From Escherichia coli (GTDB lineage: Bacteria > Pseudomonadota > Gammaproteobacteria > Enterobacterales > Enterobacteriaceae): a DNA stretch of 64,000 nucleotides. The stretch lies in NCBI RefSeq assembly GCF_024502345.1, contig NZ_JALDNN010000001.1. One strand, written 5' to 3'. The position numbers and the translations under genes are program-made. Shown piece by piece: positions 4,290 through 16,281 of this stretch. How positions within the stretch are numbered: position 1 is the first letter of the stretch; every line of letters starts with the position of its first letter. Under the pieces are notes generated by a model. That model made no database searches, had not been told where the DNA came from, and saw nothing but the letters and a program-made list of their open reading frames with translations.

Positions 4290-4562
4290 TGCTGTATCGC
4301 AGACGATACCGAGCAGGAGATACCAGCCATCATCAAGTGCGGTGACGTATTCCGGGTTAGCCAGTGCCACTGCCAGCAGCGGGTCTTCGGGGAGTGTGTC
4401 ATCGTGGTTGAGATGCCAGAGCAGGGTTCCCGTTTCGTTCCAGAAGGCGGTAAACAGGTCGATATCATCGACAGGGCCAAGGATTTCATTGCTGAGGGCC
4501 ACCAGTGCGGAGGCGGGCAGGTTGAGAAGGGGAAGACTGGTGGGAGTCGTGAGTTTAAACAT
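4290..4562 (-). pseudogene. 5' fragment of an unidentified gene fused to the junction at ~4288
   Basis: Start ATG at 4562 (MFKLTTPTSLPLLNLPASALVALSNEILGPVDD...); reading frame runs into the junction and ends in non-homologous sequence. Confidence 0.3.
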
Positions 4563-5081
4563 GATTATCTCCATAAGTAATTGATTCATATTGATAATAT
4601 GTTTTCAAATGACTTTTAGTTACATTTTTTTTACGTTGTTTGCTTATTTTGGATTATGTCCTTAAATTTAGTAGTGGGCTGGCGTTAAATCCCGTTTTTT
4701 TTCCGATTTGCAGCATTTTGTAAGCAAATTAGCATGAGCTGTTTTAACTGAAAATGAGAGAAGGCTTGCGCACAATTGCTATTGATTTTCTTACTTATTT
4801 TCTCAATCACAAAACGCCTTAAATAGTTCAAAAAACAATCAACACCCCATAATCGATATTATTTATGGGGAGAAACGACGTTTAAGCCTGAAAGTGGGGG
4901 AGTGGCACTTTCAGGAGATTAAGGAGGCAAACAGGCCTCTTTAACGCGTGTTTTTCTCACCAAAATGTCAGAGTCGGTGATTTGCACTTCAGTATTTCTG
5001 CCAATACTATTCGCTCCATGTGCTGGCCAGCATCTAACTCAATACCCTTAATCTGTATTAATTGAGCGAGATGTATGCATT

Positions 5082-6404
5082 ATGAAACCCGATAGTTCTT
5101 TAAACCAAATAACGCAGACAATGAAACGGAATGATGTTGATTCTGTGGATAGTCGCTTTTTTGAGTCAGCGCAAAACATGAAAACCAGCGTTGACGTTGA
5201 AGATTGCTGCGTTGAAGTGATGGTTCGACATCACAGCCCAAAGAATCAAAGAGAGGCATTCACTAAAGCTTTTTTTGATGAGTGTAAAATCCGTGCAGTA
5301 CAAACTGGCCGGACTATCGAAGCCAGCGATACAAAATGTACCGGGCTTAAGGCTATATTCCACTCATCCGGACGCATTAAGTTTATTGTCCGCAAAAGTA
5401 TTCGCGGAAAGAATGTTTACGTTGCAGTAGGAAGTTACCCTGAATTTTCCATTAATAACGCAAGGGAACATGCCTTTAAAATAATTCAGGAGCTTAAGGC
5501 TTCCGTTGAGACTTATGGTGAGCGTTTTCTTACGCACAGCAAAATAACGTTTAATGAACTTGTGGAACAGTATGTGAAATGCGTACTTAACACGGGCGTT
5601 AAGCGTTCAGCTAACACCGACCTTTCTAAGATCCGTAAATACCTGCGCCCTCTTCTCGGTGACAAAAAGCTGGCAGGTATGACGGAGGCAGATGTTCTGA
5701 GCTATCTACACGATCTCGATCTTAAGCCTGCCACACGCAACCGCCACCTGGCGCTCATTAAAGCGGTCTTTACCTGGGCTATACGCATGGGATACACCAG
5801 CCGCTCTCCGGCGCTTTATATCAAAGCGCTGCCTGAAGTGACGTCAGATCGCCGCGCCATGGATGACTCCCAGCTTCAGCGCTGGATGGAAGTCTGTGAG
5901 TGCTGGCGTAATGGTAAACCCGATCATGAAGCCCTTGCTCTGCTCATGTTCCTTGCCCTGACGGGGCTGCGTCTGGGGGAAACCCGTCACCTTCGTCTTG
6001 AAGATGTGGACTGGAGCCGCAAGGTTATCACCCTTCGCCATACCAAAAACGGCAAACTCCGCCGTGTACCGGTATGTGATAAGGCTTTCGTTCTTCTGAC
6101 AGAACAGCGTCAGCATCTGGGTGATGAAGGCTGGGTATTTCCGGGCAAGGGGACCGACAATCCGGTTTCTGAGCCGCGTCGCCTGCAAAAACGGCTTTGT
6201 GAGGCTGCGGGTATTCCACCGTTCACCATCCATGAGATGCGCCATACCTTTGCGACAAAACTCATTGAGAGCGGGGCCGACATTCACACCGTCAAAGACT
6301 TACTGGGCCACAGCACTATCAAAGTGACGGAGCTTTACTTGCACGCTTCCCCGGCGCGTTACCACGAAGCTGTTAACCGGGCGATGAATGTTTTTCCGGC
6401 CTAA
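5082..6404 (+). CDS. tyrosine-type site-specific recombinase (phage/island integrase)
   Basis: 440 aa; catalytic-domain motifs GLRLGETRHLRLEDVD, HEMRHTFAT and LLGHSTIKVTELYLH (R-H-R-Y signature). Confidence 0.8.
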   Translation: MKPDSSLNQITQTMKRNDVDSVDSRFFESAQNMKTSVDVEDCCVEVMVRHHSPKNQREAFTKAFFDECKIRAVQTGRTIEASDTKCTGLKAIFHSSGRIKFIVRKSIRGKNVYVAVGSYPEFSINNAREHAFKIIQELKASVETYGERFLTHSKITFNELVEQYVKCVLNTGVKRSANTDLSKIRKYLRPLLGDKKLAGMTEADVLSYLHDLDLKPATRNRHLALIKAVFTWAIRMGYTSRSPALYIKALPEVTSDRRAMDDSQLQRWMEVCECWRNGKPDHEALALLMFLALTGLRLGETRHLRLEDVDWSRKVITLRHTKNGKLRRVPVCDKAFVLLTEQRQHLGDEGWVFPGKGTDNPVSEPRRLQKRLCEAAGIPPFTIHEMRHTFATKLIESGADIHTVKDLLGHSTIKVTELYLHASPARYHEAVNRAMNVFPA

Positions 6405-6476
6405 ACAGAATTCCCCCTCAGGCAAGTGAGTTCTGCGCTTTACTGCCTGTGGTTCACATTCAAAAGGAACCTGTAA

Positions 6477-7172
6477 ATGAATAATAAATCAACACCATCC
6501 CCCTTGACTACAACGACCCCCGCTCGTTTTGCCTGCAGGAAATTAAATGCATTTCTGGCTCGTCGTGCTCTTCATATGAAGGTGGTAAGAAAAAACCTGA
6601 ACAAGGCTGCTGCAATCGACATCGATCTCGATGACATTTCTAAGTGCGGATGCCGTGATGGTCTGCCTGAAGGCTTTGTCAATACTGCAAAAGGGCTTTT
6701 CTATTATGAAGGAAAAAAATGGTACCAGTTAAGCTCGACCCCCATTCTCCCTGTCTACAGGCATTATTCTGATTGTAAAACGCGCAATATGGGCGTCGAG
6801 TTGATGACTATCAACCATGCTGGAGAGTTCGCCTGTGCTGATGTCTCATTAAGTGATGCAATGGTAAAACCTGATCACGTCATGGCTTCTCTGGCGGGCA
6901 AAGGTTTTGGTATCTCCCTGACGATAAAGTCTAAAGAGCTTCTGGTGCAATTCTTACAGGTGTGTATGAAGAAATCGCTGGAATTGCCTACTTATCTTGT
7001 CGCAGATTCGATGGGTTTTGTGCCTGGCAACAAAGCATTTCTTCACGGCAGTATACCTATCGCGCAGCACCTTTTGGAATTTGACTATTTGATTCCGGCT
7101 TCCCGTGTTCCACGAGGGCTTGTCGAGTCGGGAACGCTGGATGACTGGAAAACGATGGTACCTGTGAAATGA
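6477..7172 (+). CDS. hypothetical protein, possibly 3'-truncated island gene
   Basis: 231-aa ORF directly downstream of the integrase; its 3' end overlaps an opposite-strand ORF, suggesting a deletion junction. Confidence 0.35.
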   Translation: MNNKSTPSPLTTTTPARFACRKLNAFLARRALHMKVVRKNLNKAAAIDIDLDDISKCGCRDGLPEGFVNTAKGLFYYEGKKWYQLSSTPILPVYRHYSDCKTRNMGVELMTINHAGEFACADVSLSDAMVKPDHVMASLAGKGFGISLTIKSKELLVQFLQVCMKKSLELPTYLVADSMGFVPGNKAFLHGSIPIAQHLLEFDYLIPASRVPRGLVESGTLDDWKTMVPVK

Positions 7173-7468
7173 ATCCATTCTGATTCACCGAAGTCACTGG
7201 TCTGGTGTGACAGCGAGTACAGCCAGGCGTTATCCTTTTCCGTGATATGTGCGGTACTGCAGCGTATGCCGGCAAGGGTTGCAAACGGTGGTAGTGTGCA
7301 GGTTGACTGTTGGTCGGATTCCTCCACCACGCGGAGTGAATAACCGTTTTCAGCGACCTTGTTAATCAGTTCAGTGAGATTAACACCATCGACATCAACG
7401 ACAATTCGCCCCATGTTCAGTGCCTGCACATTAATGCTGTCGGCTTCCAACGTCAGGGCCAGTTTCAT
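7085..7468 (-). CDS. hypothetical small protein downstream of the yfjR-like gene; real extent uncertain
   Basis: ORF starting MKLALTLEADSINVQALNMGRIVVDVDG...; distal part overlaps 6477..7172 on the other strand and is probably not genuine. Confidence 0.3.
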   Translation of the reverse strand: MKLALTLEADSINVQALNMGRIVVDVDGVNLTELINKVAENGYSLRVVEESDQQSTCTLPPFATLAGIRCSTAHITEKDNAWLYSLSHQTSDFGESEWIHFTGTIVFQSSSVPDSTSPRGTREAGIK

Positions 7469-7577
7469 TGTTTCGCCTCCGGATGCTTCCCCTGGGTAAT
7501 GTTATTTACCGTTCTGTAGTTATCGCGGGTCATCAGGCCGGTTGCCCTGCGAGCCCGGAGAATATCAATACTGTTTA

Positions 7578-8228
7578 TTAACTGAGAGCGGGTAAGGACT
7601 GAATAAATCCCGGGTCTTCAACAAGACGACACAGACTGTCGTTACGCCGGAAAGTCTCCTGCAGGGGCTGAACCAGATGGATTTCATCCAGGGAGAATAC
7701 GGCGATATGTCCGTCGTGCTCTGCCACCAGATACCAGGCCTGCTGGTGGATAAGTAACCGGCAGGGAGCCAGCCGCTCACAGCGCTGCCCCTCGGCAATC
7801 AGAGTCACCCGCCTGCGCCCGGTAATGGCCTGAATCAGTCGCCAGAAAGACAATGCGCCTGATGGCGAAGGAGCCGGACTGGCGGGTGCGATTACGCAGG
7901 GAGACTCATCGCACATCAGCAGTGCGTTTACCAGACGACGGTCAAAGCCAGGGAAAAGACCGGCCATCCCGCTGCGGTGGGCAAAGATAAGCACGTCGGG
8001 CACCATCTGCGTCTCACTGCCCGCAGTGCGTAAGCGGTAATATCCGGACTGATACTCCAGGTCCAGATACATCAGCCGCTCACGAAAATCACGCCGCAGC
8101 GTGCGCACCGACACACCAAACTCAGCGGCAAGCTTACGCACACTCAGCGTTTCCCCTGCCACCAGACGGCTGATTATCAGTGACAGCCTGACAGCCAGCC
8201 GGTCATGGCGGCGTTCTGCCTGTGTCAT
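7578..8228 (-). CDS. yfjR: HTH-WYL regulator, YfjR-like (CP4-57-type island)
   Basis: 216 aa; HTH ([16 protein letters not shown]) plus AWYLVA motif; lies downstream of yfjP/yfjQ-like genes in the order recalled for E. coli CP4-57. Confidence 0.7.
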
Positions 8229-8444
8229 GAGACGTTCTCCGTGAAAGTTAACTGACTGAAAATGATGTGATTACTTTAAAGAGGGGGTCGGACAGGGTAT
8301 GGACACCACAGAAACTATTTTTCATTTCTGCAAAAGCCAGAGGCAGCGGGGGTTACAGGCCTTCCCTCGGTGAGTGAGGACCGTCAGCACGGTGCGATGC
8401 GGACAGGTGGTGTCCGATATTAACAAAGCAGCAACATTAAACGG

Positions 8445-9266
8445 TCACTGCAGTTGCGTGAGCAGGGCTTCCGCCATCACCCACAGTGCCCGGTTAAGTT
8501 TCACGTCCCCGTCGATACCGCGAACGGCACGGGTATGTGACCGTCCTCCTTTGGCATTACGGCCACTGAGCCCGCCCTTAATCAGGTTCTCCTGAATACG
8601 CTGGTACGTGGTCCACAGGTCATTGCTCTCATCCTGCCAGCGGCGAGGGGAGAGGATCTGCGATTCAGTCACCGGCTGGTGGTCTTCACCAAAGCGGTAT
8701 GTGAGGGCGGCTTTTGCCAGTGCCTGCTGTGCCGGGGGTGGCAACAGCAACGACTGCATGGCATCCCGTTTCTCCTCCACCCGGTCAAAAATCCCCAGCA
8801 CCTCATACGCGCCTTCAATCACCTGACTCACCACGTCCCCCTTGTGTGGCACCCGCACCTCGCCAAACGACTCACCGCAGACGAGCCCGTTCTGACAAAC
8901 CGCACGAAATAGTCCCGGCAACATCTGATACGAACTAGTGCCATCGTGGGAGTTGAGCAGGATAATTTCTGGTACCTGTTTACCGGTAATCTGCCCCTCA
9001 CGCCGCAGACGCAGCATATGCTTTGTATGTTCACGACGACCGGGGTCACGCACGCGGGTCTGACAGGCAAAGAATGGCTGGAAGCCTTCTCGCTGTAGGC
9101 TGTCGAGCAGGGAGATGGTAGGTATATAGGTATAACGCTCACTGCGGGATTCATGTTTGTCCTCGCTGAATACACTGGGCACCACGCGAAACAGCTCCTC
9201 ACGGGTTAACGGGCGGTCGCGACGGATAAGGTTTGCTGCGCCAAAGCGCGAAGCCAGACGGGTCAT
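8445..9266 (-). CDS. yfjQ: DUF932-family protein, YfjQ-like
   Basis: Start moved to internal ATG (MTRLASRFGAANLIRRDRPL...) which has a GAGGAG SD; sequence closely matches recalled YfjQ. Confidence 0.75.
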   Translation of the reverse strand: MTRLASRFGAANLIRRDRPLTREELFRVVPSVFSEDKHESRSERYTYIPTISLLDSLQREGFQPFFACQTRVRDPGRREHTKHMLRLRREGQITGKQVPEIILLNSHDGTSSYQMLPGLFRAVCQNGLVCGESFGEVRVPHKGDVVSQVIEGAYEVLGIFDRVEEKRDAMQSLLLPPPAQQALAKAALTYRFGEDHQPVTESQILSPRRWQDESNDLWTTYQRIQENLIKGGLSGRNAKGGRSHTRAVRGIDGDVKLNRALWVMAEALLTQLQ

Positions 9267-9357
9267 AAGCAGACTCCTCATAATGGGAAAACAAATAAAA
9301 GAAATCCCCGTCGCATCGGCGACAGGGTTAGGGAAATAACAGGGATGGGTTAAATAC

Positions 9358-10221
9358 TCAGAAGAAGAAATCCCAGACGGCACGGGCCACTGACACCACG
9401 GTGGTGCGCACGGCCTGAATGACGGCCCGCACCGGGGCGGGGATCAGGGGAAAGGCACTGATGCTATCGAGTACAGCACCGACGGTTTCACCAAAATCGC
9501 TACGCGCCTGTTCCCGGACTACCGTCGTGCGAAAGGAAGGCTGGAGTTGCGACACCACCGGGCTGGTGGCCTCACGTGGCAGGCACTTAATCATTCGCTC
9601 GGCCATCACCCGCAGTCCCCACTGAAGACGGACCGACACGGCACACACTGGATGTACGGGCTGGAACAGCTCATGCAGCAGGCAGATTTTGCGGCTGATA
9701 TTCTGCTTCTGCGCCGTGGACAACTGTCCCCCACCGCTGGTAGGTTCGGCCTTATCCGACTGGCTGATAACAAACAGCACCTTATGCCGGTATACCTCTC
9801 CAATCACCTGATGATAAAAATGTTCATCCACCGTCAGCGCCCGGTCATCGGCCTTAATCAGCCACAGTACCAGGTCGAGGCGAGGAAGCTGTTCGCGGTA
9901 CAGCGCAGCATACTCGGTATCGCGAGCACCACTTTCGCCCACGCCGGGCAGATCCATCAGCGTTATATAGCGGTCGCCAACCTGCAGGCGAAAGCGCAGT
10001 GGCTCACGTGTACAGGCCGCCACATCGCTGACCGGTGATACCTCACTGGCAAACAGGGCATTGCAGAGTGAGGATTTACCGGCACCGCTCTTACCCATAA
10101 TGCCGATCACTGGCTCGTAGCGGGTTAACTGATTTATCTGCTGCAATATACGTTCAGACACCCACTGTGGCAGACCAGCGAGCGATTGCTGAAACGGCTT
10201 CAATCCTTCAGAATTGTTCAT
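9358..10221 (-). CDS. yfjP: island-associated GTPase, YfjP/YeeP/YkfA family
   Basis: Walker A GKSGAGKSSLCNALF; start placed at MNNSEGLKPFQQSL with GAGGAG SD. Confidence 0.8.
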   Translation of the reverse strand: MNNSEGLKPFQQSLAGLPQWVSERILQQINQLTRYEPVIGIMGKSGAGKSSLCNALFASEVSPVSDVAACTREPLRFRLQVGDRYITLMDLPGVGESGARDTEYAALYREQLPRLDLVLWLIKADDRALTVDEHFYHQVIGEVYRHKVLFVISQSDKAEPTSGGGQLSTAQKQNISRKICLLHELFQPVHPVCAVSVRLQWGLRVMAERMIKCLPREATSPVVSQLQPSFRTTVVREQARSDFGETVGAVLDSISAFPLIPAPVRAVIQAVRTTVVSVARAVWDFFF

Positions 10222-10327
10222 TACTACTCCTCTGAAAAATAATACAAAAACGGCAGAATCGTGAGATTCCACCGTTAATCTGGTATGTTCAAAGGGATGA
10301 TATATATCTGAAAATTATTAACTTGAT

Positions 10328-11254
10328 CTACTTTTTGTCTTTTTTACGTGATGAAACAGCCTGCAGCCAAGCATGCTTCATTTTCTGAATAAAGAAATAT
10401 TTTTCTTCAACTCCAGTGTCCCAACTATCCATGCATGCAATGATCATCTGTATTCTCATTGCAGTGTTATATGGTTTTAAATAAAAGGGGATCATATTTT
10501 TATTTCTCAGATACTCCCAGCAATAGATAGCTTGCTTTTCATCTTTTTTATCTAGCCAGTCATAATCAGTAAGAAATGTATTATATTGCTCTAGCCATTT
10601 ATCATGCAACTTACGAAAATAGGAAATTTTCTGACTTAAACTTACAGGAGCTAAATCAATAAACCTCATCAAAGTACAAATGCGTTCTTGTTCGGATGTT
10701 GTATTCGGGCTGTAGTTGTCGGGATCTGCGCCAGATGTTAAATAAAATCTACGCGAGTATTTTTCAGGTATATCTCTATTTTTTTCTTTATTGCTAGGGG
10801 AGGTTCCCACCTGCATTTCGGCTTGTACTTCATCAAGTGAGAAATTTTTAATTTCATCAATGTTTATAAATTCAAAAAAGGATGCAGGAGTTGAGTTCGG
10901 GTTGTAAATATTATCTTGTGCAAAGATATTCACGCTCGAGGAGGTTTCAGGACTGATTCTGTTGTTATATATATACATTAAGGCAAACCACGATCCTCTA
11001 TCAGAACCTTTGAAACAATCGAACTTCTCTTTGTCAATGATTTTGTAATGGAACTGTTTTTTCAAGTAAGTACGCGCACTTTGTATTGCTTCATTATTGA
11101 ATAGGAATTTAGTGTTCAATATATGATTAATGAGTTTTTGAAATTCCTCAGGCGTGTCGAAATTACTCGCCTGCTTAATGTAATCTTCGTTGTAATACAG
11201 ACTCAGAACGTAAAGGGAAAAGAACTCCTCTCTCACTTCGTCATACCTAAGCAT
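10328..11254 (-). CDS. hypothetical protein (308 aa), AT-rich orphan gene
   Basis: Long uninterrupted ORF in visibly AT-rich DNA immediately upstream of the yfjP-like GTPase; no motif recognised. Confidence 0.5.
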   Translation of the reverse strand: MLRYDEVREEFFSLYVLSLYYNEDYIKQASNFDTPEEFQKLINHILNTKFLFNNEAIQSARTYLKKQFHYKIIDKEKFDCFKGSDRGSWFALMYIYNNRISPETSSSVNIFAQDNIYNPNSTPASFFEFINIDEIKNFSLDEVQAEMQVGTSPSNKEKNRDIPEKYSRRFYLTSGADPDNYSPNTTSEQERICTLMRFIDLAPVSLSQKISYFRKLHDKWLEQYNTFLTDYDWLDKKDEKQAIYCWEYLRNKNMIPFYLKPYNTAMRIQMIIACMDSWDTGVEEKYFFIQKMKHAWLQAVSSRKKDKK

Positions 11255-11572
11255 GTACCCTCCAGTGTGATATCACATCTGTCCGATGCTTTCAAAAGTA
11301 TAAATGAACCATGATGATTTGGCATCTGCAAGGTGACTGTTGACTGGTTTTTTGCTGATTTTTTAATGATAAAGTAGTGATTACTAACTGATTAGTAAGT
11401 GATTAATGGCTGGTTGCCTCCTGTGATTTTTCTGCCTCTGGTAAATTGGGGGAGAGTACTGATCAACTCACCACTCTGAATAATTTTCATGATTGCACTC
11501 TACAAAGTTTCGACATCCGTCAAATTGTAACGGTCAGAGAACAGCGTTACACGAGGTTTTCCGTATCTATGC

Positions 11573-12629
11573 GGCTTTGTTGAATAAATCGAACTTTTGC
11601 TGAGTTGAAGGATCAGATCACGTATCTTCCCGACAACGCAGACCGTTCCGTGGCAAAGCAAAAGTTCAAAATCACCAACTGGCCCACCTACAATAAAGCC
11701 CTCATCAACCGTGGCTCCATAACTTTCTGGCTGGATGATGAAGCTATTCAGGCCTGGTATGAGTCAGCAACACCTTCTTCACGAGGCAGACCTCAGCGCT
11801 ATTCTGACCTTGCCATCACGACTGTGCTGGTCATTAAACGCGTATTCAGGCTGACCCTGCGCGCTGCGCAGGGCTTTATTGATTCCATTTTTTCTCTGAT
11901 GAACGTTCCGCTACGCTGCCCGGATTACAGCTGTGTCAGCAGGCGGGCAAAGTCGGTTAATGTCAGTTTCAAAACGCCCACCCGGGGTGAAATCGCACAC
12001 CTGGTAATTGATTCCACCGGGCTGAAGGTCTTCGGTGAAGGCGAGTGGAAAGTCAAAAAGCATGGCCAGGAACGCCGCCGTATCTGGCGTAAGCTGCATC
12101 TCGCCGTTGACAGTAAAACACATGAAATCATCTGCGCTGACCTGTCGCTGAACAACGTTACGGACTCAGAGGCCTTCCCCGGGTTAATCCGGCAAACCCA
12201 CCGGAAAATCAGGTCAGCCGCCGCCGATGGCGCTTACGATACCCGGCTATGTCACGATGAACTGCGGCGTAAGAAAATCAGCGCGCTTATCCCTCCCCGA
12301 AAAGGTGCGGGTTACTGGCCCGGTGAATATGCAGACCGTAACCGTGCAGTGGCTAATCAGCGAATGACCGGGAGTAATGCGCGGTGGAAATGGACAACAG
12401 ATTACAACCGTCGCTCGATAGCGGAAACGGCGATGTACCGGGTAAAACAGCTGTTCGGGGGTTCACTGACACTGCGTGACTACGATGGTCAGGTTGCAGA
12501 GGCTATGGCCCTGGTACGAGCGCTGAACAAAATGACGAAAGCAGGTATGCCTGAAAGCGTGCGTATTGCCTGAAAACACAACCCGCTACGGGGGAGACTT
12601 ACCCGAAATCTGATTTATTCAACAAAGCC
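11573..12629 (+). mobile_element. IS903-group insertion sequence (IS5 family), 1057 bp
   Basis: Terminal inverted repeats GGCTTTGTTGAATAAATCG at 11573 and its complement ending at 12629; internal sequence matches recalled IS903; flanking 9-mers differ (no target-site duplication). Confidence 0.9.
11605..12573 (+). CDS. IS903 transposase
   Basis: 322-codon ORF filling the element; DDE transposase of the IS903/IS102 type; ORF track start is a TTG codon. Confidence 0.9.
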   Translation: MKDQITYLPDNADRSVAKQKFKITNWPTYNKALINRGSITFWLDDEAIQAWYESATPSSRGRPQRYSDLAITTVLVIKRVFRLTLRAAQGFIDSIFSLMNVPLRCPDYSCVSRRAKSVNVSFKTPTRGEIAHLVIDSTGLKVFGEGEWKVKKHGQERRRIWRKLHLAVDSKTHEIICADLSLNNVTDSEAFPGLIRQTHRKIRSAAADGAYDTRLCHDELRRKKISALIPPRKGAGYWPGEYADRNRAVANQRMTGSNARWKWTTDYNRRSIAETAMYRVKQLFGGSLTLRDYDGQVAEAMALVRALNKMTKAGMPESVRIA

Positions 12630-13024
12630 ACTGTGTTTATCAAATTCCATGCCCTTTTTGCTGCTTAATTTTAAATGACACTCTGATCATGCACCGTGAT
12701 TGAAATAAGTTATAGCCACCCCTTAATCATTTTTTTCAGACGACATTAACTTCGGAGTAAATAATTTAACACAATGAAATATCAAACCGCATCTGGCCTG
12801 AATGTTGAGTATTAATACGTGACGGATTGTTAATATATATCAGTACATAAACCCCAATATTCCAGTAATACACACCTACACAATACACACCAAGCAATTT
12901 AGTCAGCATCACCCAACTAACATCCAACACAAACTCAATAAGCCAGATTTGATACCACCTAATTACCTCAACCATCGCGGGTAAGGTTCCGTCCTGCCCG
13001 ATATTCAGATCACAGGAATCTATT

Positions 13025-13636
13025 ATGCTTAATGATATTTATCTTGACCAACGTCATGCCCCATTCAATACAACGTATTTGCAACGGATGCTGGGTGTAA
13101 TTGATAACGCTATAGCACAACACCCAAGGACAATGGCTGTCCGTGTCGATCTACGTCTGCCTGATGACAACTGTAATAGGAATAGTGGTCTGATATCCCG
13201 TTTCATTGAATCGCTTAATGCAAAAATCGATGCTCGGTACCGAAATAAAATAAAGAATGGCATCAGGAGCTACCCATGCCAGTTGCGTTACGCCTGGGTT
13301 CGGGAAGTGGGAGAAATAAACGAGAAGTCCCATTACCACATGGTACTTTTCGTGAACAAAGACACATTCAATGGACTTGGGAGCTATGGAGAAGGGGGAA
13401 CGGGATTAGCCAGCCTGATACGTGAAGCCTGGCTGAGCGCTTTGCAACTAGGCCCTTACCCCGAATACCGAACGTTGGTCCACATCCCGGACAACCCATT
13501 GTATTACCTGGACGTCAATAATTTAGACTACAAAACGGTTTACGATAAACTCACTTTCAGGCTGAGTTATTTTGCGAAAGAGCGCACCAAGTCATACAGC
13601 CGAGATGAACGCTCGTTTGGCTGCAGTCAGTCCTGA
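13025..13636 (+). CDS. YagK/YfjJ-family (inovirus Gp2-like) island protein
   Basis: 203 aa starting MLNDIYLDQRHAPFNTTYLQRM...; family typical of CP4-type islands (recalled similarity). Confidence 0.6.
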   Translation: MLNDIYLDQRHAPFNTTYLQRMLGVIDNAIAQHPRTMAVRVDLRLPDDNCNRNSGLISRFIESLNAKIDARYRNKIKNGIRSYPCQLRYAWVREVGEINEKSHYHMVLFVNKDTFNGLGSYGEGGTGLASLIREAWLSALQLGPYPEYRTLVHIPDNPLYYLDVNNLDYKTVYDKLTFRLSYFAKERTKSYSRDERSFGCSQS

Positions 13637-13941
13637 GGCAAAACAAACTAAGTCTATAAAGATTTTTTCAGCCTGGCTCTAATCGACTGAATCTCAGCAT
13701 ACTCCGCTTTTGAAGCCTTGACACGTCAGTTGTTCTTTCACCTCTGAGTGGCTACTCGCGACTGCCTGCAGGAGACTGATTATGTTATTGACCGCAAAAT
13801 CCATTAACTGACTTTTCGACTTAATCTCCTTAAGTTATGTGAGAAATTTGCCGATATGAAAACATGATCCTCCAGTCGCTACTGACATGCCCTGTCAGTA
13901 GCGACTGGTAATCTCAAGGAAAAATTACAAGGAGAACGCGC

Positions 13942-14170
13942 ATGAGCGGGCATGAGGTAATGGTACAAAGAATAACCGCTATTATTGCAGAACTTTACCA
14001 GTACGGTTTTGTATCACGTAAGAAGATGATGGACGAATTCAACATCAGTGAGCGTACTTTGTATCGTGATCTTAATCGTCTGGGCGACAGAATCGTCCCC
14101 GATGGTGATGGTATTTACAGGCTGGCTCCCGCTTACGCTAAACCTCAGGCTCTAAAAGAACAACAAAATC
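13942..14170 (+). pseudogene. N-terminal HTH fragment of a YfjR-like regulator, truncated at the junction with appC
   Basis: Frame encodes ...MMDEFNISERTLYRDLNRL... then runs out of frame into appC sequence at ~14170. Confidence 0.4.
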
Positions 14171-15133
14171 TCGGCCATGTTTATTATGGCGATCAGCGCC
14201 TGGTATTTACTGCGCGGACGGGAGCGCGATGTCGCATTACGCTCGTTTGCCATCGGTTCCGTCTTCGGTACTCTGGCGATTATTGGCACGCTGCAACTCG
14301 GAGACAGTTCTGCGTATGAAGTCGCGCAAGTACAACCGGTAAAACTGGCGGCGATGGAAGGGGAGTGGCAAACGGAACCTGCACCTGCACCGTTCCATGT
14401 GGTTGCCTGGCCGGAACAGGATCAAGAGCGTAACGCCTTTGCCATCAAAATTCCCGCGCTGCTAGGGATCCTCGCCACTCACTCATTAGATAAACCCGTG
14501 CCGGGTCTGAAGAATTTGATGGCTGAAACCTACCCACGCTTGCAACGCGGACGTATGGCCTGGCTGTTAATGCAGGAAATATCGCAAGGCAATCGTGAGC
14601 CGCATGTGTTGCAGGCATTCCGGGAACTGGAAGGTGACCTGGGCTACGGCATGTTGCTCTCCCGCTATGCGCCGGATATGAATCATGTCACAGCCGCACA
14701 GTACCAGGCGGCGATGCGTGGTGCAATACCTCAGGTTGCGCCGGTATTCTGGAGTTTCCGCATCATGGTGGGCTGTGGTTCCCTGCTGCTACTGGTGATG
14801 CTGATTGCGCTTGTCCAGACGCTGCGTGGCAAAATCGACCAGCATCGCTGGGTGCTGAAAATGGCGCTCTGGAGTTTGCCGTTGCCGTGGATTGCGATTG
14901 AAGCCGGGTGGTTTATGACCGAGTTTGGTCGTCAGCCGTGGGCGATACAGGACATCTTACCGACATACTCCGCGCACTCCGCCTTAACCACAGGACAACT
15001 GGCTTTCTCACTGATCATGATCGTAGGGCTTTACACCCTGTTCTTAATCGCCGAAGTCTACCTGATGCAGAAATATGCCCGTCTGGGGCCGAGCGCGATG
15101 CAGAGTGAACAACCGACGCAGCAACAGGGGTAA
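14170..15133 (+). pseudogene. appC: cytochrome bd-II ubiquinol oxidase subunit I, 5'-truncated (C-terminal ~320 codons only)
   Basis: Protein from ...AMFIMAISAWYLLRGRER to ...SEQPTQQQG matches the C-terminal part of AppC; upstream sequence is island DNA. Confidence 0.85.
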
Positions 15134-15144
15134 AGGAGAAAATC

Positions 15145-16281
15145 ATGTTTGATTATGAAACATTGCGCTTCATCTGGTGGCTGCTGATTGGCGTGATCCT
15201 GGTGGTCTTTATGATCTCCGACGGATTTGACATGGGGATCGGCTGTTTGCTGCCGCTGGTGGCGCGTAATGATGATGAACGCCGGATAGTGATTAATAGC
15301 GTTGGTGCGCACTGGGAAGGCAATCAGGTCTGGTTGATCCTCGCAGGTGGGGCATTATTTGCCGCCTGGCCCAGAGTGTATGCAGCGGCGTTTTCCGGCT
15401 TTTATGTGGCGATGATCCTGGTGCTGTGCTCGCTGTTCTTCCGCCCGCTGGCCTTTGATTATCGCGGAAAAATCGCCGATGCACGCTGGCGTAAAATGTG
15501 GGATGCCGGTCTGGTCATCGGCAGTCTGGTGCCGCCGGTAGTCTTCGGTATCGCCTTCGGCAACTTGTTGCTCGGCGTGCCGTTTGCCTTCACACCGCAA
15601 TTACGCGTGGAGTATCTCGGCAGCTTCTGGCAACTGCTGACGCCATTCCCTTTATTGTGCGGATTGCTCAGCCTTGGGATGGTGATTTTGCAAGGTGGCG
15701 TCTGGTTACAACTGAAAACTGTTGGTGTGATTCATCTGCGTTCACAGCTGGCGACTAAACGCGCTGCACTGTTGGTGATGCTGTGCTTTTTGCTGGCGGG
15801 TTACTGGCTGTGGGTCGGTATTGATGGCTTTGTACTGCTCGCCCAGGATGCTAACGGTCCTTCCAATCCGTTAATGAAACTGGTGGCAGTGCTACCTGGT
15901 GCCTGGATGAATAATTTTGTCGAGTCGCCCGTTTTGTGGATCTTCCCGCTACTGGGGTTCTTCTGCCCATTGCTGACGGTGATGGCGATTTATCGTGGTC
16001 GCCCGGGTTGGGGATTTTTGATGGCATCATTGATGCAATTTGGCGTGATTTTCACGGCAGGCATCACGCTGTTCCCCTTTGTCATGCCGTCAAGCGTGAG
16101 TCCAATCTCCAGCCTGACGTTGTGGGACAGCACTTCCAGTCAGCTGACGCTGAGTATTATGTTGGTAATCGTGCTGATATTTTTGCCCATTGTGTTGCTC
16201 TACACTCTCTGGAGCTACTACAAAATGTGGGGGCGCATGACGACAGAAACTCTCCGCCGTAACGAAAACGAGCTGTACTAA
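15145..16281 (+). CDS. appB: cytochrome bd-II ubiquinol oxidase subunit II
   Basis: 378 aa, [21 protein letters not shown]...; SD AAGGAG upstream. Confidence 0.9.

Follow-up and report, generated by a model that had tools for sequence, protein, structure and literature searches.

The locus considered here raises the question of what is encoded by a single AT-rich gene that lies between an IS903-type element and a yfjP-like GTPase gene in a 64,000-nt stretch of Escherichia coli DNA (hereafter the window), and whether it is anti-phage cargo comparable to the rnlAB toxin-antitoxin pair, as a preliminary description of the locus had suggested, or something else. The gene, referred to as X, was taken from the ORF list at 10328..11254 on the minus strand; it starts with ATG and encodes a protein of 308 aa, and its GC content of 0.35, against 0.53-0.59 for the neighbouring GTPase and DUF932 genes, agrees with the AT-richness first reported. 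A Shine-Dalgarno sequence, GGAGGG (11258..11263, minus strand), was read 3 nt 5' of the ATG and is the same in E. coli and Kluyvera, and a consensus scan placed a sigma-70-like promoter candidate further upstream (ATGCCA, 17 nt, TATACT; 11297..11325, minus strand), which is also conserved between E. coli and Kluyvera. X is under purifying selection, with a dN/dS of 0.22 relative to a 93%-identical E. coli allele and of 0.19 relative to the Kluyvera gene. Together with the strong Shine-Dalgarno sequence, the low GC content and its annotation in other genomes, this indicates that X is a real gene and not a chance ORF. A search with X alone across 5,426 complete E. coli genomes found intact X, identical or near-identical, in 28 and truncated copies or remnants in 3, with IS1 truncating the allele in one strain; a figure of about 128 genomes with a 3' remnant was rejected, the rest having matched the GTPase leader.

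The gene downstream of X (9358..10221, minus strand) encodes a yfjP/ykfA-type GTPase of the Era/MMR_HSR1 class that shows no co-variation with X, and is followed by a DUF932 gene and then by WYL/yfjR-like genes, in keeping with the yfjP-like context originally noted. In the gap from the stop codon of X to the ribosome-binding site of the GTPase gene, a terminator scan identified a terminator-like hairpin of 12 pairs with a T-run (10239..10276, minus strand), which is kept in nine islands regardless of the type of X, with double changes at four pairs. It is part of the conserved GTPase leader and lies outside the X cassette, whose break point is 20 nt before the X stop; Rfam gave no match at E<=0.1 for positions 7000-14500. 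The IS903 boundary on the other side of X was borne out by the transposase family and by blastn, which delimited a 1,057-bp IS5-family, IS903-type element at 11573..12629 (plus strand). An intact copy of the window island is found in E. coli G3/10 (L001), where X is divergent from alpA/yfjJ. In the blastn alignment of the two, window position 11572 corresponds to L001 13373 and position 12630 to L001 13721, so that the IS903-type insertion is associated with a loss of 347 bp that includes the alpA-like gene normally divergent from X. A Gp2-like gene of the YagK/YfjJ family (13025..13636, plus strand), which together with alpA makes up the block that is constantly divergent from X, is retained in the window. 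Judged from this alignment, the window island is a decayed remnant, in which alpA was deleted by IS903 and much else is gone, with X and its repeat array intact.

X had been called an uncharacterised orphan without recognisable motif, and the absence of a motif was confirmed: X has no match in Pfam, NCBIfam or PADLOC, and matches PHROGs only at E>0.1. It is, however, no orphan. An indexed search returned eight clusters at 90% identity, and an exhaustive phmmer search (E<=1e-3) at least 84 representative homologues of about 300 aa from gamma-proteobacteria, all of them unnamed. The window ORF matches a profile built from the family alignment A2 with E=2e-72, and its structure matches in AFDB50 are to uncharacterised proteins of about 300 aa only (TM 0.5-0.87). 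HMM and structure prediction, which had been proposed as a check, supplied helical domains and family homologues but no named family. The AF2 model (pLDDT 83, pTM 0.76) predicts with confidence two helical domains, at residues 1-105 and 180-308, with a variable, disordered linker between them; the C-terminal one is basic (pI about 9), and no transmembrane segments were found in X. Full-length homology, the succession of N-terminal helical domain, linker and C-terminal helical domain, and the W..W.YL...P...D.W...KMK.AW motifs place X, on alignment, in an undescribed gamma-proteobacterial island protein family, in which R8, R86, D200, K209, W233, Y248, P261, D276 and W296 are near-invariant. The family alignment holds no catalytic-looking conserved motif. 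Literature on yfjP/ykfA/yeeP, on DUF932, or on MatP with genomic islands yielded nothing about X. Two candidate identities were rejected: the source name of a Budvicia homologue, 'Rho GTPase-activating protein', receives no support from Pfam, and K-12 YfjH, although positionally equivalent (convergent with intA and divergent from alpA), gave an hhalign probability of 0.1%. A scan of IMG/VR for X found two near-identical E. coli-type loci only, and tblastn of X found no match in phage or plasmid records; a relative bearing a ribbon-helix-helix (RHH) domain likewise had no match in phage records and 26 in plasmid records, the two inspected (H88 and H90) showing the same island context.

The family is divided by its C-terminus. 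A C-terminal RHH module is present in 41 of 50 aligned relatives; one relative with an RHH is the 355-aa E. coli protein WP_001585287.1. The RHH of such relatives, a DNA-binding domain, points to DNA binding or regulation rather than to an effector function. The RHH (beta-strand/helix/helix, about 45 residues) is absent from X, which stops 12 residues past the KMKHAW helix motif (LQAVSSRKKDKK), where the RHH starts in relatives; with only 106 nt between the stop codon of X and the start of the GTPase gene, a hidden one would not fit. Full-length ORFs of this kind occur in E. coli, Kluyvera, Buttiauxella, Budvicia, Salmonella and Yersinia, and their alignment indicates that the clade of the window protein has lost the RHH.

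In every context examined, comprising about 15 distinct islands or plasmid-borne copies in more than 10 genera, X is divergent from alpA and/or the Gp2-like yfjJ. It is usually the first gene before a GTPase/DUF932/RadC backbone, as in enterobacterial islands, whereas no GTPase lies beside X in Vibrio, Kushneria, a marine island and one plasmid copy; in the simplest islands X adjoins the integrase and is divergent from an AlpA-family gene, and in several loci a Gp2-like (REP_ORF2-G2P) gene shares its intergenic region. The slot upstream of the GTPase had been described as variable. Its content does vary, with rnlA-rnlB directly upstream of yfjP in CP4-57 of K-12, as first described; other islands have X alleles of 23-43% identity, and some strains no recognisable occupant. 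Across the roughly 15 contexts, however, the occupants are diverged members of one family rather than unrelated cargo, and the synteny comparison showed that the X family is constant relative to alpA/yfjJ. These observations bear on the proposal that X, in a fixed diversifying position, serves in conflict as a sensor or effector against phages or as an anti-defence gene. Conflict genes are also typically hypervariable within a conserved frame, the islands do hold defence cargo and anti-restriction genes, rnlAB takes the same position relative to yfjP in K-12, and the AT-rich X resembles many recently acquired genes. Against this, the slot occupants are homologous, relatives end in a DNA-binding RHH, no catalytic motif is present and no partner gene co-varies with X. 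X resembles neither RnlA nor RnlB, and no second small gene able to complete a toxin-antitoxin pair was found. The models of PADLOC-DB 2.0.0, a library of 2023 whose coverage excludes newer defence systems, matched zero families for X and zero for eight relatives. Recognisable defence cargo sits elsewhere in the islands, beyond the yfjJ-like gene (an MmeI-type enzyme with a DEAD helicase and T5orf172; SIR2; a helicase/AAA/DUF1156 set). The comparison with rnlAB as anti-phage cargo was not upheld; a defence role for X has no support at present and, like a conflict function in general, is considered quite unlikely.

A second constant feature of the locus lies upstream of X. About nine phased 11-bp direct repeats with the core (A/T)ATCA(G/C) extend over 11327..11425 (minus strand), which is -170 to -75 relative to the start codon of X, and abut the promoter candidate; five perfect ATCA units occupy 11349-11403. 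The lag-11 self-match of this array is 0.61, compared with a mean maximum of 0.38 in mononucleotide shuffles and reached by 0 of 300 of them, TRF reports a period of 11, and the five-unit pattern occurs once in the 64-kb window, against an expectation of 0. Six islands with RHH-less X, drawn from five genera, have 6-8 phased 11-bp units at -170 to -85, with TCA triplets invariant at 11-nt spacing, even though the X proteins are only 32-43% identical between those genera. Other types of X have different phased repeats in the same place, namely ATTACTA with period 11, ACCTAC with period 12 and CCTA with period 11, and no phased repeats were found upstream of K-12 yfjP, where X is missing. In several RHH-bearing loci the periodicity is weak (frac>=obs 0.055-0.10 against the same type of shuffle for L024, L029 and L013), the array of L024 being at 2750-2835, and the RHH-less clade has the array in its most regular and best conserved form within the family. 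Among 100,044 species genomes, none of the matches to the five-unit pattern that were listed (at least 120 loci in unrelated taxa) had an X-family ORF, a result that is uninformative on specificity.

Each array unit includes WATCAR, and the spacers consist of helically phased A/T tracts. WATCAR is the best-conserved half of the IHF consensus, and a host factor such as IHF, or intrinsic curvature together with H-NS binding, could explain part of the pattern. The RHH-less clade might also be degenerate, X being a leftover that is non-functional or dominant-negative, with the repeats as a relic bound by IHF or H-NS. The loss of the RHH, the rarity of the allele among E. coli genomes, its truncation by IS1 in one strain, the decay of the window island and the WATCAR core are all in line with this. 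The clade nevertheless extends over at least six genera with full-length ORFs and a dN/dS of about 0.2, invariant residues number in the dozens across both domains, and it is in this very clade that the array is most regular and most conserved; such breadth, purifying selection, invariant residues and a conserved array are signatures of a functional gene and site, and degeneration appears very unlikely.

X and its upstream repeats are replaced together between islands, as observed in three natural pairs. Salmonella L011 and E. coli L024 have AlpA proteins of 99% and GTPases of 90% identity, with X proteins of only 27% identity and different repeats; nucleotide similarity is lost 439 nt upstream of X and regained 20 nt before its stop codon. 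E. coli L002 and L017 share 94% nt identity over cargo and yfjJ with 23% between their X proteins, and in two Budvicia islands the GTPases are 99% and the X proteins 29% identical. A different neighbour is near-identical in each pair (AlpA, YfjJ or the GTPase), and only X changes alongside the repeats. As X and the repeats are adjacent, joint replacement could reflect physical linkage in one recombination unit instead of a partnership between protein and site.

The interpretation that we favour, at a probability of roughly 40%, is that X is an island-specific regulatory or DNA-organising protein of a CP4-6/CP4-57-like island that acts on its own repeat array. It is supported by the constant position of X, the conserved repeats, their co-replacement with X, the dN/dS of about 0.2 with a strong ribosome-binding site, and a basic C-terminal domain without transmembrane segments. 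We infer that X binds the repeats, with the following consequences. X, its own promoter and the phased 11-bp array would form one exchangeable cassette, in which X would oligomerise on the array just upstream of its own promoter, with its weak -35, and the bound array would set transcription of X and of the backbone operon (GTPase, DUF932, WYL and further genes), possibly also that of the divergent alpA. Co-diversification of X and repeats would prevent cross-regulation among co-resident sister islands, by the same logic as the immunity regions of phages and the incompatibility determinants of plasmids. The C-terminal RHH would provide the DNA contact in most family members, whereas the RHH-less window protein would have to contact DNA via its basic C-terminal helical domain or rely on another partner. 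That the window protein has no recognisable DNA-binding domain counts against a regulatory role, and the greater regularity of the array in the RHH-less clade is the opposite of what a simple model in which the RHH reads the repeats would predict. A bolder version, which we regard as speculative and unlikely, is that RHH-less X reads the invariant ATCA(G/C) 11-bp array through an undescribed helical DNA-binding or oligomerising domain, producing a filament-like switch that would define 'immunity/incompatibility groups' of CP4-type islands in one cell; if true, element-specificity determinants would gain a new class, and the shuffling of AT-rich X cassettes between otherwise identical backbones would be explained.

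The same arrangement of gene and repeats has been weighed as a maintenance module of the excised island, comparable to a plasmid centromere or replication accessory site, in which an X-iteron complex would act as in ParR-parC of R1 or StbA-stbDR of R388, with the GTPase as motor or the Gp2-like protein as nickase at an origin lying within the shared intergenic region. Phased repeats before the gene are the layout of both these plasmid systems, and here phased 11-bp direct repeats precede a gene of a mostly RHH-bearing family. An NTPase gene follows X directly in enterobacterial islands, a Gp2-like gene shares the intergenic region in several loci, and co-diversified protein and sites are typical of incompatibility determinants. 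The putative motor, however, does not co-evolve with X, as the Budvicia pair shows, is missing next to X in the Vibrio, Kushneria, marine and plasmid contexts named above, and is divided from X by the conserved terminator-like hairpin; the YfjJ-like gene remains 94% identical at the nucleotide level despite changed repeats, the array lies where promoter regulators bind, and the window protein has no RHH. Taken together, a maintenance role seems unlikely.

CP4-6/CP4-57-type islands are among the commonest integrative elements of Enterobacterales and are marked by an integrase, AlpA, a Gp2-like protein, DUF932, RadC, anti-restriction genes and CbtA/CbeA. Their cargo includes defence systems, adhesins and toxin-antitoxin pairs, and to our knowledge the regulation of these islands is essentially undescribed beyond AlpA. 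A hypervariable gene at a conserved position, accompanied by a conserved cis-array, is a testable candidate for an element-specific switch in such islands. The X family also gives annotators a nameable group in place of 'hypothetical protein', and its placement illustrates that an AT-rich unknown gene beside defence-island landmarks need not be defence cargo. A related class of Pseudomonas islands has recently been shown to move by jumbo-phage transduction (PMC12595487).

Among known systems, RnlAB of CP4-57 shares the position of X immediately upstream of yfjP in K-12, but it is a two-gene cassette with an RNase toxin, whereas X is a single gene similar to neither protein; moreover, alpA and yfjJ of CP4-57 point towards yfjP with the cargo between them, while in X islands they point away from X. 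MatP, the organiser of the Ter macrodomain, is composed of a helical bundle, an RHH and a coiled coil, and is the best solved-structure match to the full X-family profile (hmmsearch E=6.9e-4), covering the W-x-W-x-Y-L helix, the next helices and the RHH. An hhalign comparison of the X family with MatP gave 80% probability (E=1.4e-5, 105 columns). A homologue search for MatP yielded nothing but sequences of at least 97% identity and a single one at 69%, a set unfit for profile-profile comparison. Homology of the helical part of X to MatP was not sustained, as the profile misses MatP once the RHH is removed and the hhalign probability falls to 7.6%; none of 50 X-family members matches the Pfam MatP model (PF06303). 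X lacks both the RHH and the C-terminal coiled coil of MatP, its relatives have the RHH and no long coiled coil, and X has an additional 105-residue N-terminal domain and linker; MatP is also a housekeeping protein, whereas X is hypervariable and encoded by mobile elements. Only a loose architectural resemblance is retained.

The RHH regulators ParR, which acts on parC of R1, and omega of pSM19035 (CopG/Arc/MetJ) recognise tandem direct repeats located in front of their own operon, StbA-stbDR of R388 being a functional analogue of different fold. Like them, most X-family members have an RHH; as in ParR-parC, helically phased direct repeats, 7-9 units in the window, are found just upstream of the gene's own promoter, and as in RHH centromere/regulator systems, protein and repeats diversify together between related elements. 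The RHH of the X family is, however, C-terminal after about 240 residues of two helical domains and not a small N-terminal module, and it is missing from the whole clade of the window protein. Unlike ParR-parC, X has no cognate actin-like or ParA-type motor, the adjacent Era-class GTPase being 90-99% identical beside X proteins of 27-29% identity. In the immunity modules of temperate phages and satellites (C/cox of P2, stl/str of SaPIs), divergent repressor and activator genes with operators between them are exchanged as mosaic units. The CI, C and Stl proteins have no sequence or fold relationship to X, and the likeness is one of position and logic: X is likewise divergent from an AlpA-family gene and, with its upstream sites, is likewise swapped as a discrete unit between near-identical backbones.

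The protein studied here, X, is encoded on the minus strand at 10328-11254 by a 308-aa ORF with an ATG start and a Shine-Dalgarno sequence (GGAGGG) 3 nt upstream, exactly where the preliminary description had placed it. The surroundings also agree with that account: the ORF is AT-rich (GC 0.35, against 0.53-0.59 for the minus-strand genes downstream), the genes 3' of X encode an Era-class GTPase of the yfjP/ykfA type, a DUF932 protein and a WYL/yfjR-like protein, the terminal inverted repeat of a 1,057-bp IS5-family (IS903-type) element bounds the other side from 11573, and rnlA-rnlB, the pair named as the occupant of this slot, lies immediately upstream of yfjP in K-12 CP4-57. The GC step is kept in four genera, with X at 0.33-0.41 and the same-strand neighbour GTPase at 0.54-0.58 (the window and loci L002, L006 and L007), which suggests either selection for AT-richness in the X cassette (H-NS silencing and DNA curvature are possible reasons) or a separate, AT-rich evolutionary pool from which the cassette comes. 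Comparison of X with a 93%-identical E. coli allele gave a dN/dS of 0.22, and comparison with Kluyvera 0.19, near the values of the adjacent GTPase (0.14-0.17). The gene is under purifying selection, and a degenerate relic is very improbable. The allele is rare, being intact in 28 of the 5,426 complete E. coli genomes and shortened in 3, whereas the GTPase is present in at least 556 of them.

Upstream of X, on the same strand, five 11-bp direct repeats follow one another in phase (ATCACTTACTA, ATCAGTTAGTA, ATCACTACTTT, ATCATTAAAAA and ATCAGCAAAAA), flanked by degenerate ACCAG and GTCAC units. The whole array (about 11327-11425, -170 to -75 from the ATG of X) terminates at a candidate promoter, ATGCCA-17-TATACT. 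Its lag-11 self-similarity was 0.61, against a mean shuffle maximum of 0.38 (0/300 shuffles), and the 64-kb window contains a single occurrence of the five-unit pattern where 0 are expected. Kluyvera, Buttiauxella, Budvicia and Salmonella share the array at equal distance from X, and its alignment across these genera showed invariant TCA triplets at 11-nt spacing with variable spacers. The equivalent place ahead of other X types carries ATTACTA with period 11, ACCTAC with period 12 or a weaker CCTA with period 11, and at some of these loci the periodicity is marginal only; the region upstream of K-12 yfjP, which has no X, contains no phased repeats. The array of the 93%-identical allele, that of E. 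coli MS6192 (L002, 13135-13193), has exactly one 11-bp unit fewer than that of the window. Iterons typically vary in unit number.

Three natural pairs of islands show X and its array exchanged together as a single cassette. Between a Salmonella and an E. coli island (L011 and L024), AlpA is 99%, the GTPase 90% and X 27% identical, and the repeats differ; at the nucleotide level the two are similar (94%) across alpA and the next 116 nt, and this similarity ends 439 nt before the X start and returns 20 nt before the X stop. Two E. coli islands (L002 and L017) share 94% nucleotide identity over cargo and yfjJ and 82% identity in the GTPase protein, with X at 23% and its region unalignable, and in two Budvicia islands the GTPase is 99% and X 29% identical. 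AlpA, YfjJ and the GTPase are each near-constant in at least one pair where the repeats differ, so that X alone changes with the repeats, as would be predicted for a cognate partner of the array. Joint replacement could also result from adjacency alone. The most economical reading, to which we assign a probability of about 0.40, makes X a regulator or DNA-organising protein that belongs to the island and carries its specificity. X would act on the repeats ahead of its promoter, and protein and array would diversify together, thereby avoiding cross-talk among sister islands sharing a cell.

The label of orphan was not upheld by homology searches. An indexed search returned eight X clusters, from E. 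coli, Kluyvera, Buttiauxella and Budvicia, and 84 homologues, nearly all about 270-390 aa long, emerged at E<=1e-3 when 1.84 billion representatives were searched exhaustively. Names were looked up for ten clusters, whose sources are Yersinia, Salmonella, Citrobacter, Vibrio, Kushneria and Budvicia, and all read 'hypothetical', except for one 'ribbon-helix-helix domain-containing protein'; AFDB50 matches were uncharacterised gamma-proteobacterial proteins of ~300 aa only, two of them labelled CopG family. The family is undescribed: it has no Pfam, NCBIfam, PADLOC or PDB entry, literature searches found no paper on it, and X itself, in which no motif had been recognised, gave no match in Pfam, NCBIfam, PADLOC or a PDB sequence search and only PHROGs matches at E>0.1. 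One public source names a Budvicia homologue (P0008; L003, 10001-11089) 'Rho GTPase-activating protein', a name lacking Pfam or domain support that looks like an annotation artefact. In the AF2 model of X (pLDDT 83, pTM 0.76), residues 1-105 and 180-308 each form a well-defined helical domain, and the linker between the two is disordered and varies in length. The protein is soluble, its C-terminal domain is basic (pI about 9), and no conserved catalytic-looking constellation was seen in the family.

In an alignment of 50 family members, 41 carry a tail of 51-111 residues past a conserved KMKxAW motif, whereas window X and seven others (two each from Kluyvera and Buttiauxella, and one each from Budvicia, Yersinia and Salmonella) stop 10-20 Lys/Ser-rich residues past it; the remaining sequence is a fragment. 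The longer tails are ribbon-helix-helix (RHH) domains, matching Pfam RHH_1/RepB-RCR_reg (weakly), NCBIfam RelB/RepA and PHROGs Arc-like repressor. Since the RHH-less proteins are closer to each other (32-43% identity) than to RHH-bearing ones (22-30%), their relationships fit a single ancient loss of the domain. Upstream of P0032, an RHH-bearing X from Budvicia, repeats with ATCA(G/C/T)GTT also occur (L015, 6530-6939), at 18-bp and longer spacing, so the ATCA core may be older than the loss. The best PDB match of the whole-family profile was MatP (E=6.9e-4; hhalign probability 80%). This match was gone once the RHH was removed, and no member checked matched the Pfam MatP domain; MatP was therefore rejected as a family assignment and kept only as a loose analogue in architecture, in which an RHH likewise follows a helical bundle. 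The main weakness of the regulator reading is that the clade of window X lacks the sole recognisable DNA-binding domain of the family, yet has the best-conserved repeats. It is possible that the array is read by the basic C-terminal helical domain of X, or by another factor such as host IHF or H-NS, since the units contain WATCAR and phased A/T tracts, or that the repeats act structurally.

Between the X stop codon and the ribosome-binding site of the GTPase lies a terminator-like 12-pair hairpin followed by a T-run (10239-10276, minus strand). It is kept in nine islands whatever the X type, including K-12 without X, and four of its pairs carry compensatory changes. A conserved box, CAGATATATATCAT, lies upstream of it in the X-GTPase intergenic region (10277-10327), and box and hairpin together precede every yfjP-type GTPase examined, including K-12 yfjP. 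Because the hairpin is part of the GTPase leader, transcription of X and the GTPase appears to be either separate or attenuated between the two genes. The hairpin may itself serve as an attenuator, and antiterminators are known among AlpA-family proteins. Island comparisons showed no co-evolution of X with the GTPase, which argues against a joint machine, be it a partition motor or a GAP. A maintenance function for X, as a centromere or origin-accessory factor, is unlikely, and its partition-motor form is disfavoured on these grounds.

X was found in E. coli G3/10, MS6192 and a second E. coli type, in Kluyvera, Buttiauxella, Budvicia (two islands), Salmonella, Citrobacter and a Yersinia-type metagenomic contig, and in two plasmid-borne copies, Vibrio, Kushneria and two metagenomic islands. 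In all contexts examined it is divergent from an AlpA-family gene and/or a Gp2-like YagK/YfjJ gene, and RHH-bearing and RHH-less members share one island position. In enterobacterial islands X heads a backbone of GTPase, DUF932 and WYL genes, with anti-restriction, RadC and CbtA/CbeA genes further on; one plasmid copy has DUF932 directly after X, and in the simplest islands, beside smpB or otherwise integrase-adjacent, X lies between integrase and alpA without the GTPase. K-12 YfjH (L018, 3645-4601, 318 aa) is encoded at the equivalent place, in convergent orientation to the integrase and divergently from alpA; it has no detectable homology to the X family and may be an unrelated protein that fills the same functional slot. 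In several E. coli strains (L021-L023, 4865-5979) the GTPase is separated from an IS5 fragment by 1.1 kb of unannotated DNA, which contains neither an X-family ORF nor phased repeats. The comparison with anti-phage rnlAB had implied defence cargo, and these islands do carry recognisable defence genes (an MmeI-type enzyme with DEAD helicase and T5orf172; SIR2_2; a helicase/AAA/DUF1156 set), but on the far side of the yfjJ-like gene and not at the X position. The cargo idea is thus not supported, and a defence or anti-defence role for X is quite unlikely.

The island in the window is decayed, with X and its array intact. It is 100% identical to that of E. coli G3/10 (L001) over 7590-11572 and 12630-15500; in between, the IS903-type element (11573-12629) replaces 347 bp (L001 13374-13720) that include a 68-aa alpA-like gene along with 131 bp of the intergenic region between X and alpA, leaving X without its normal divergent partner in this strain. 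A second deletion, which removes ypjK through cbtA relative to G3/10, brings together, at 7159-7604, a DUF5983 fragment and the WYL/yfjR-like gene, the latter truncated at its 3' end, and the integrase and DUF927 fragment to the left (4296-7165) match a different element of other E. coli strains. On the other flank, appC, encoding cytochrome bd-II subunit I (14177-15133), is 5'-truncated where the island abuts. A short HTH-like ORF before it (13942-14319) corresponds to the beginning of the cargo region; the defence-like helicase/AAA/DUF1156 set found there in MS6192 is absent from the window.

The probability not assigned to the readings considered is left to functions of X that were not. X and its array provide a specific entry point, open to test, into how a very common class of islands is regulated, and the RHH-less clade poses a real mechanistic puzzle. 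The logic of a mosaic module that pairs a DNA-binding protein with its cognate phased repeats is already familiar, and the islands broadly match a class described in Pseudomonas, which carries intY, alpA, Gp2-like, RadC and YqaJ genes together with defence cargo (PMC12595487).
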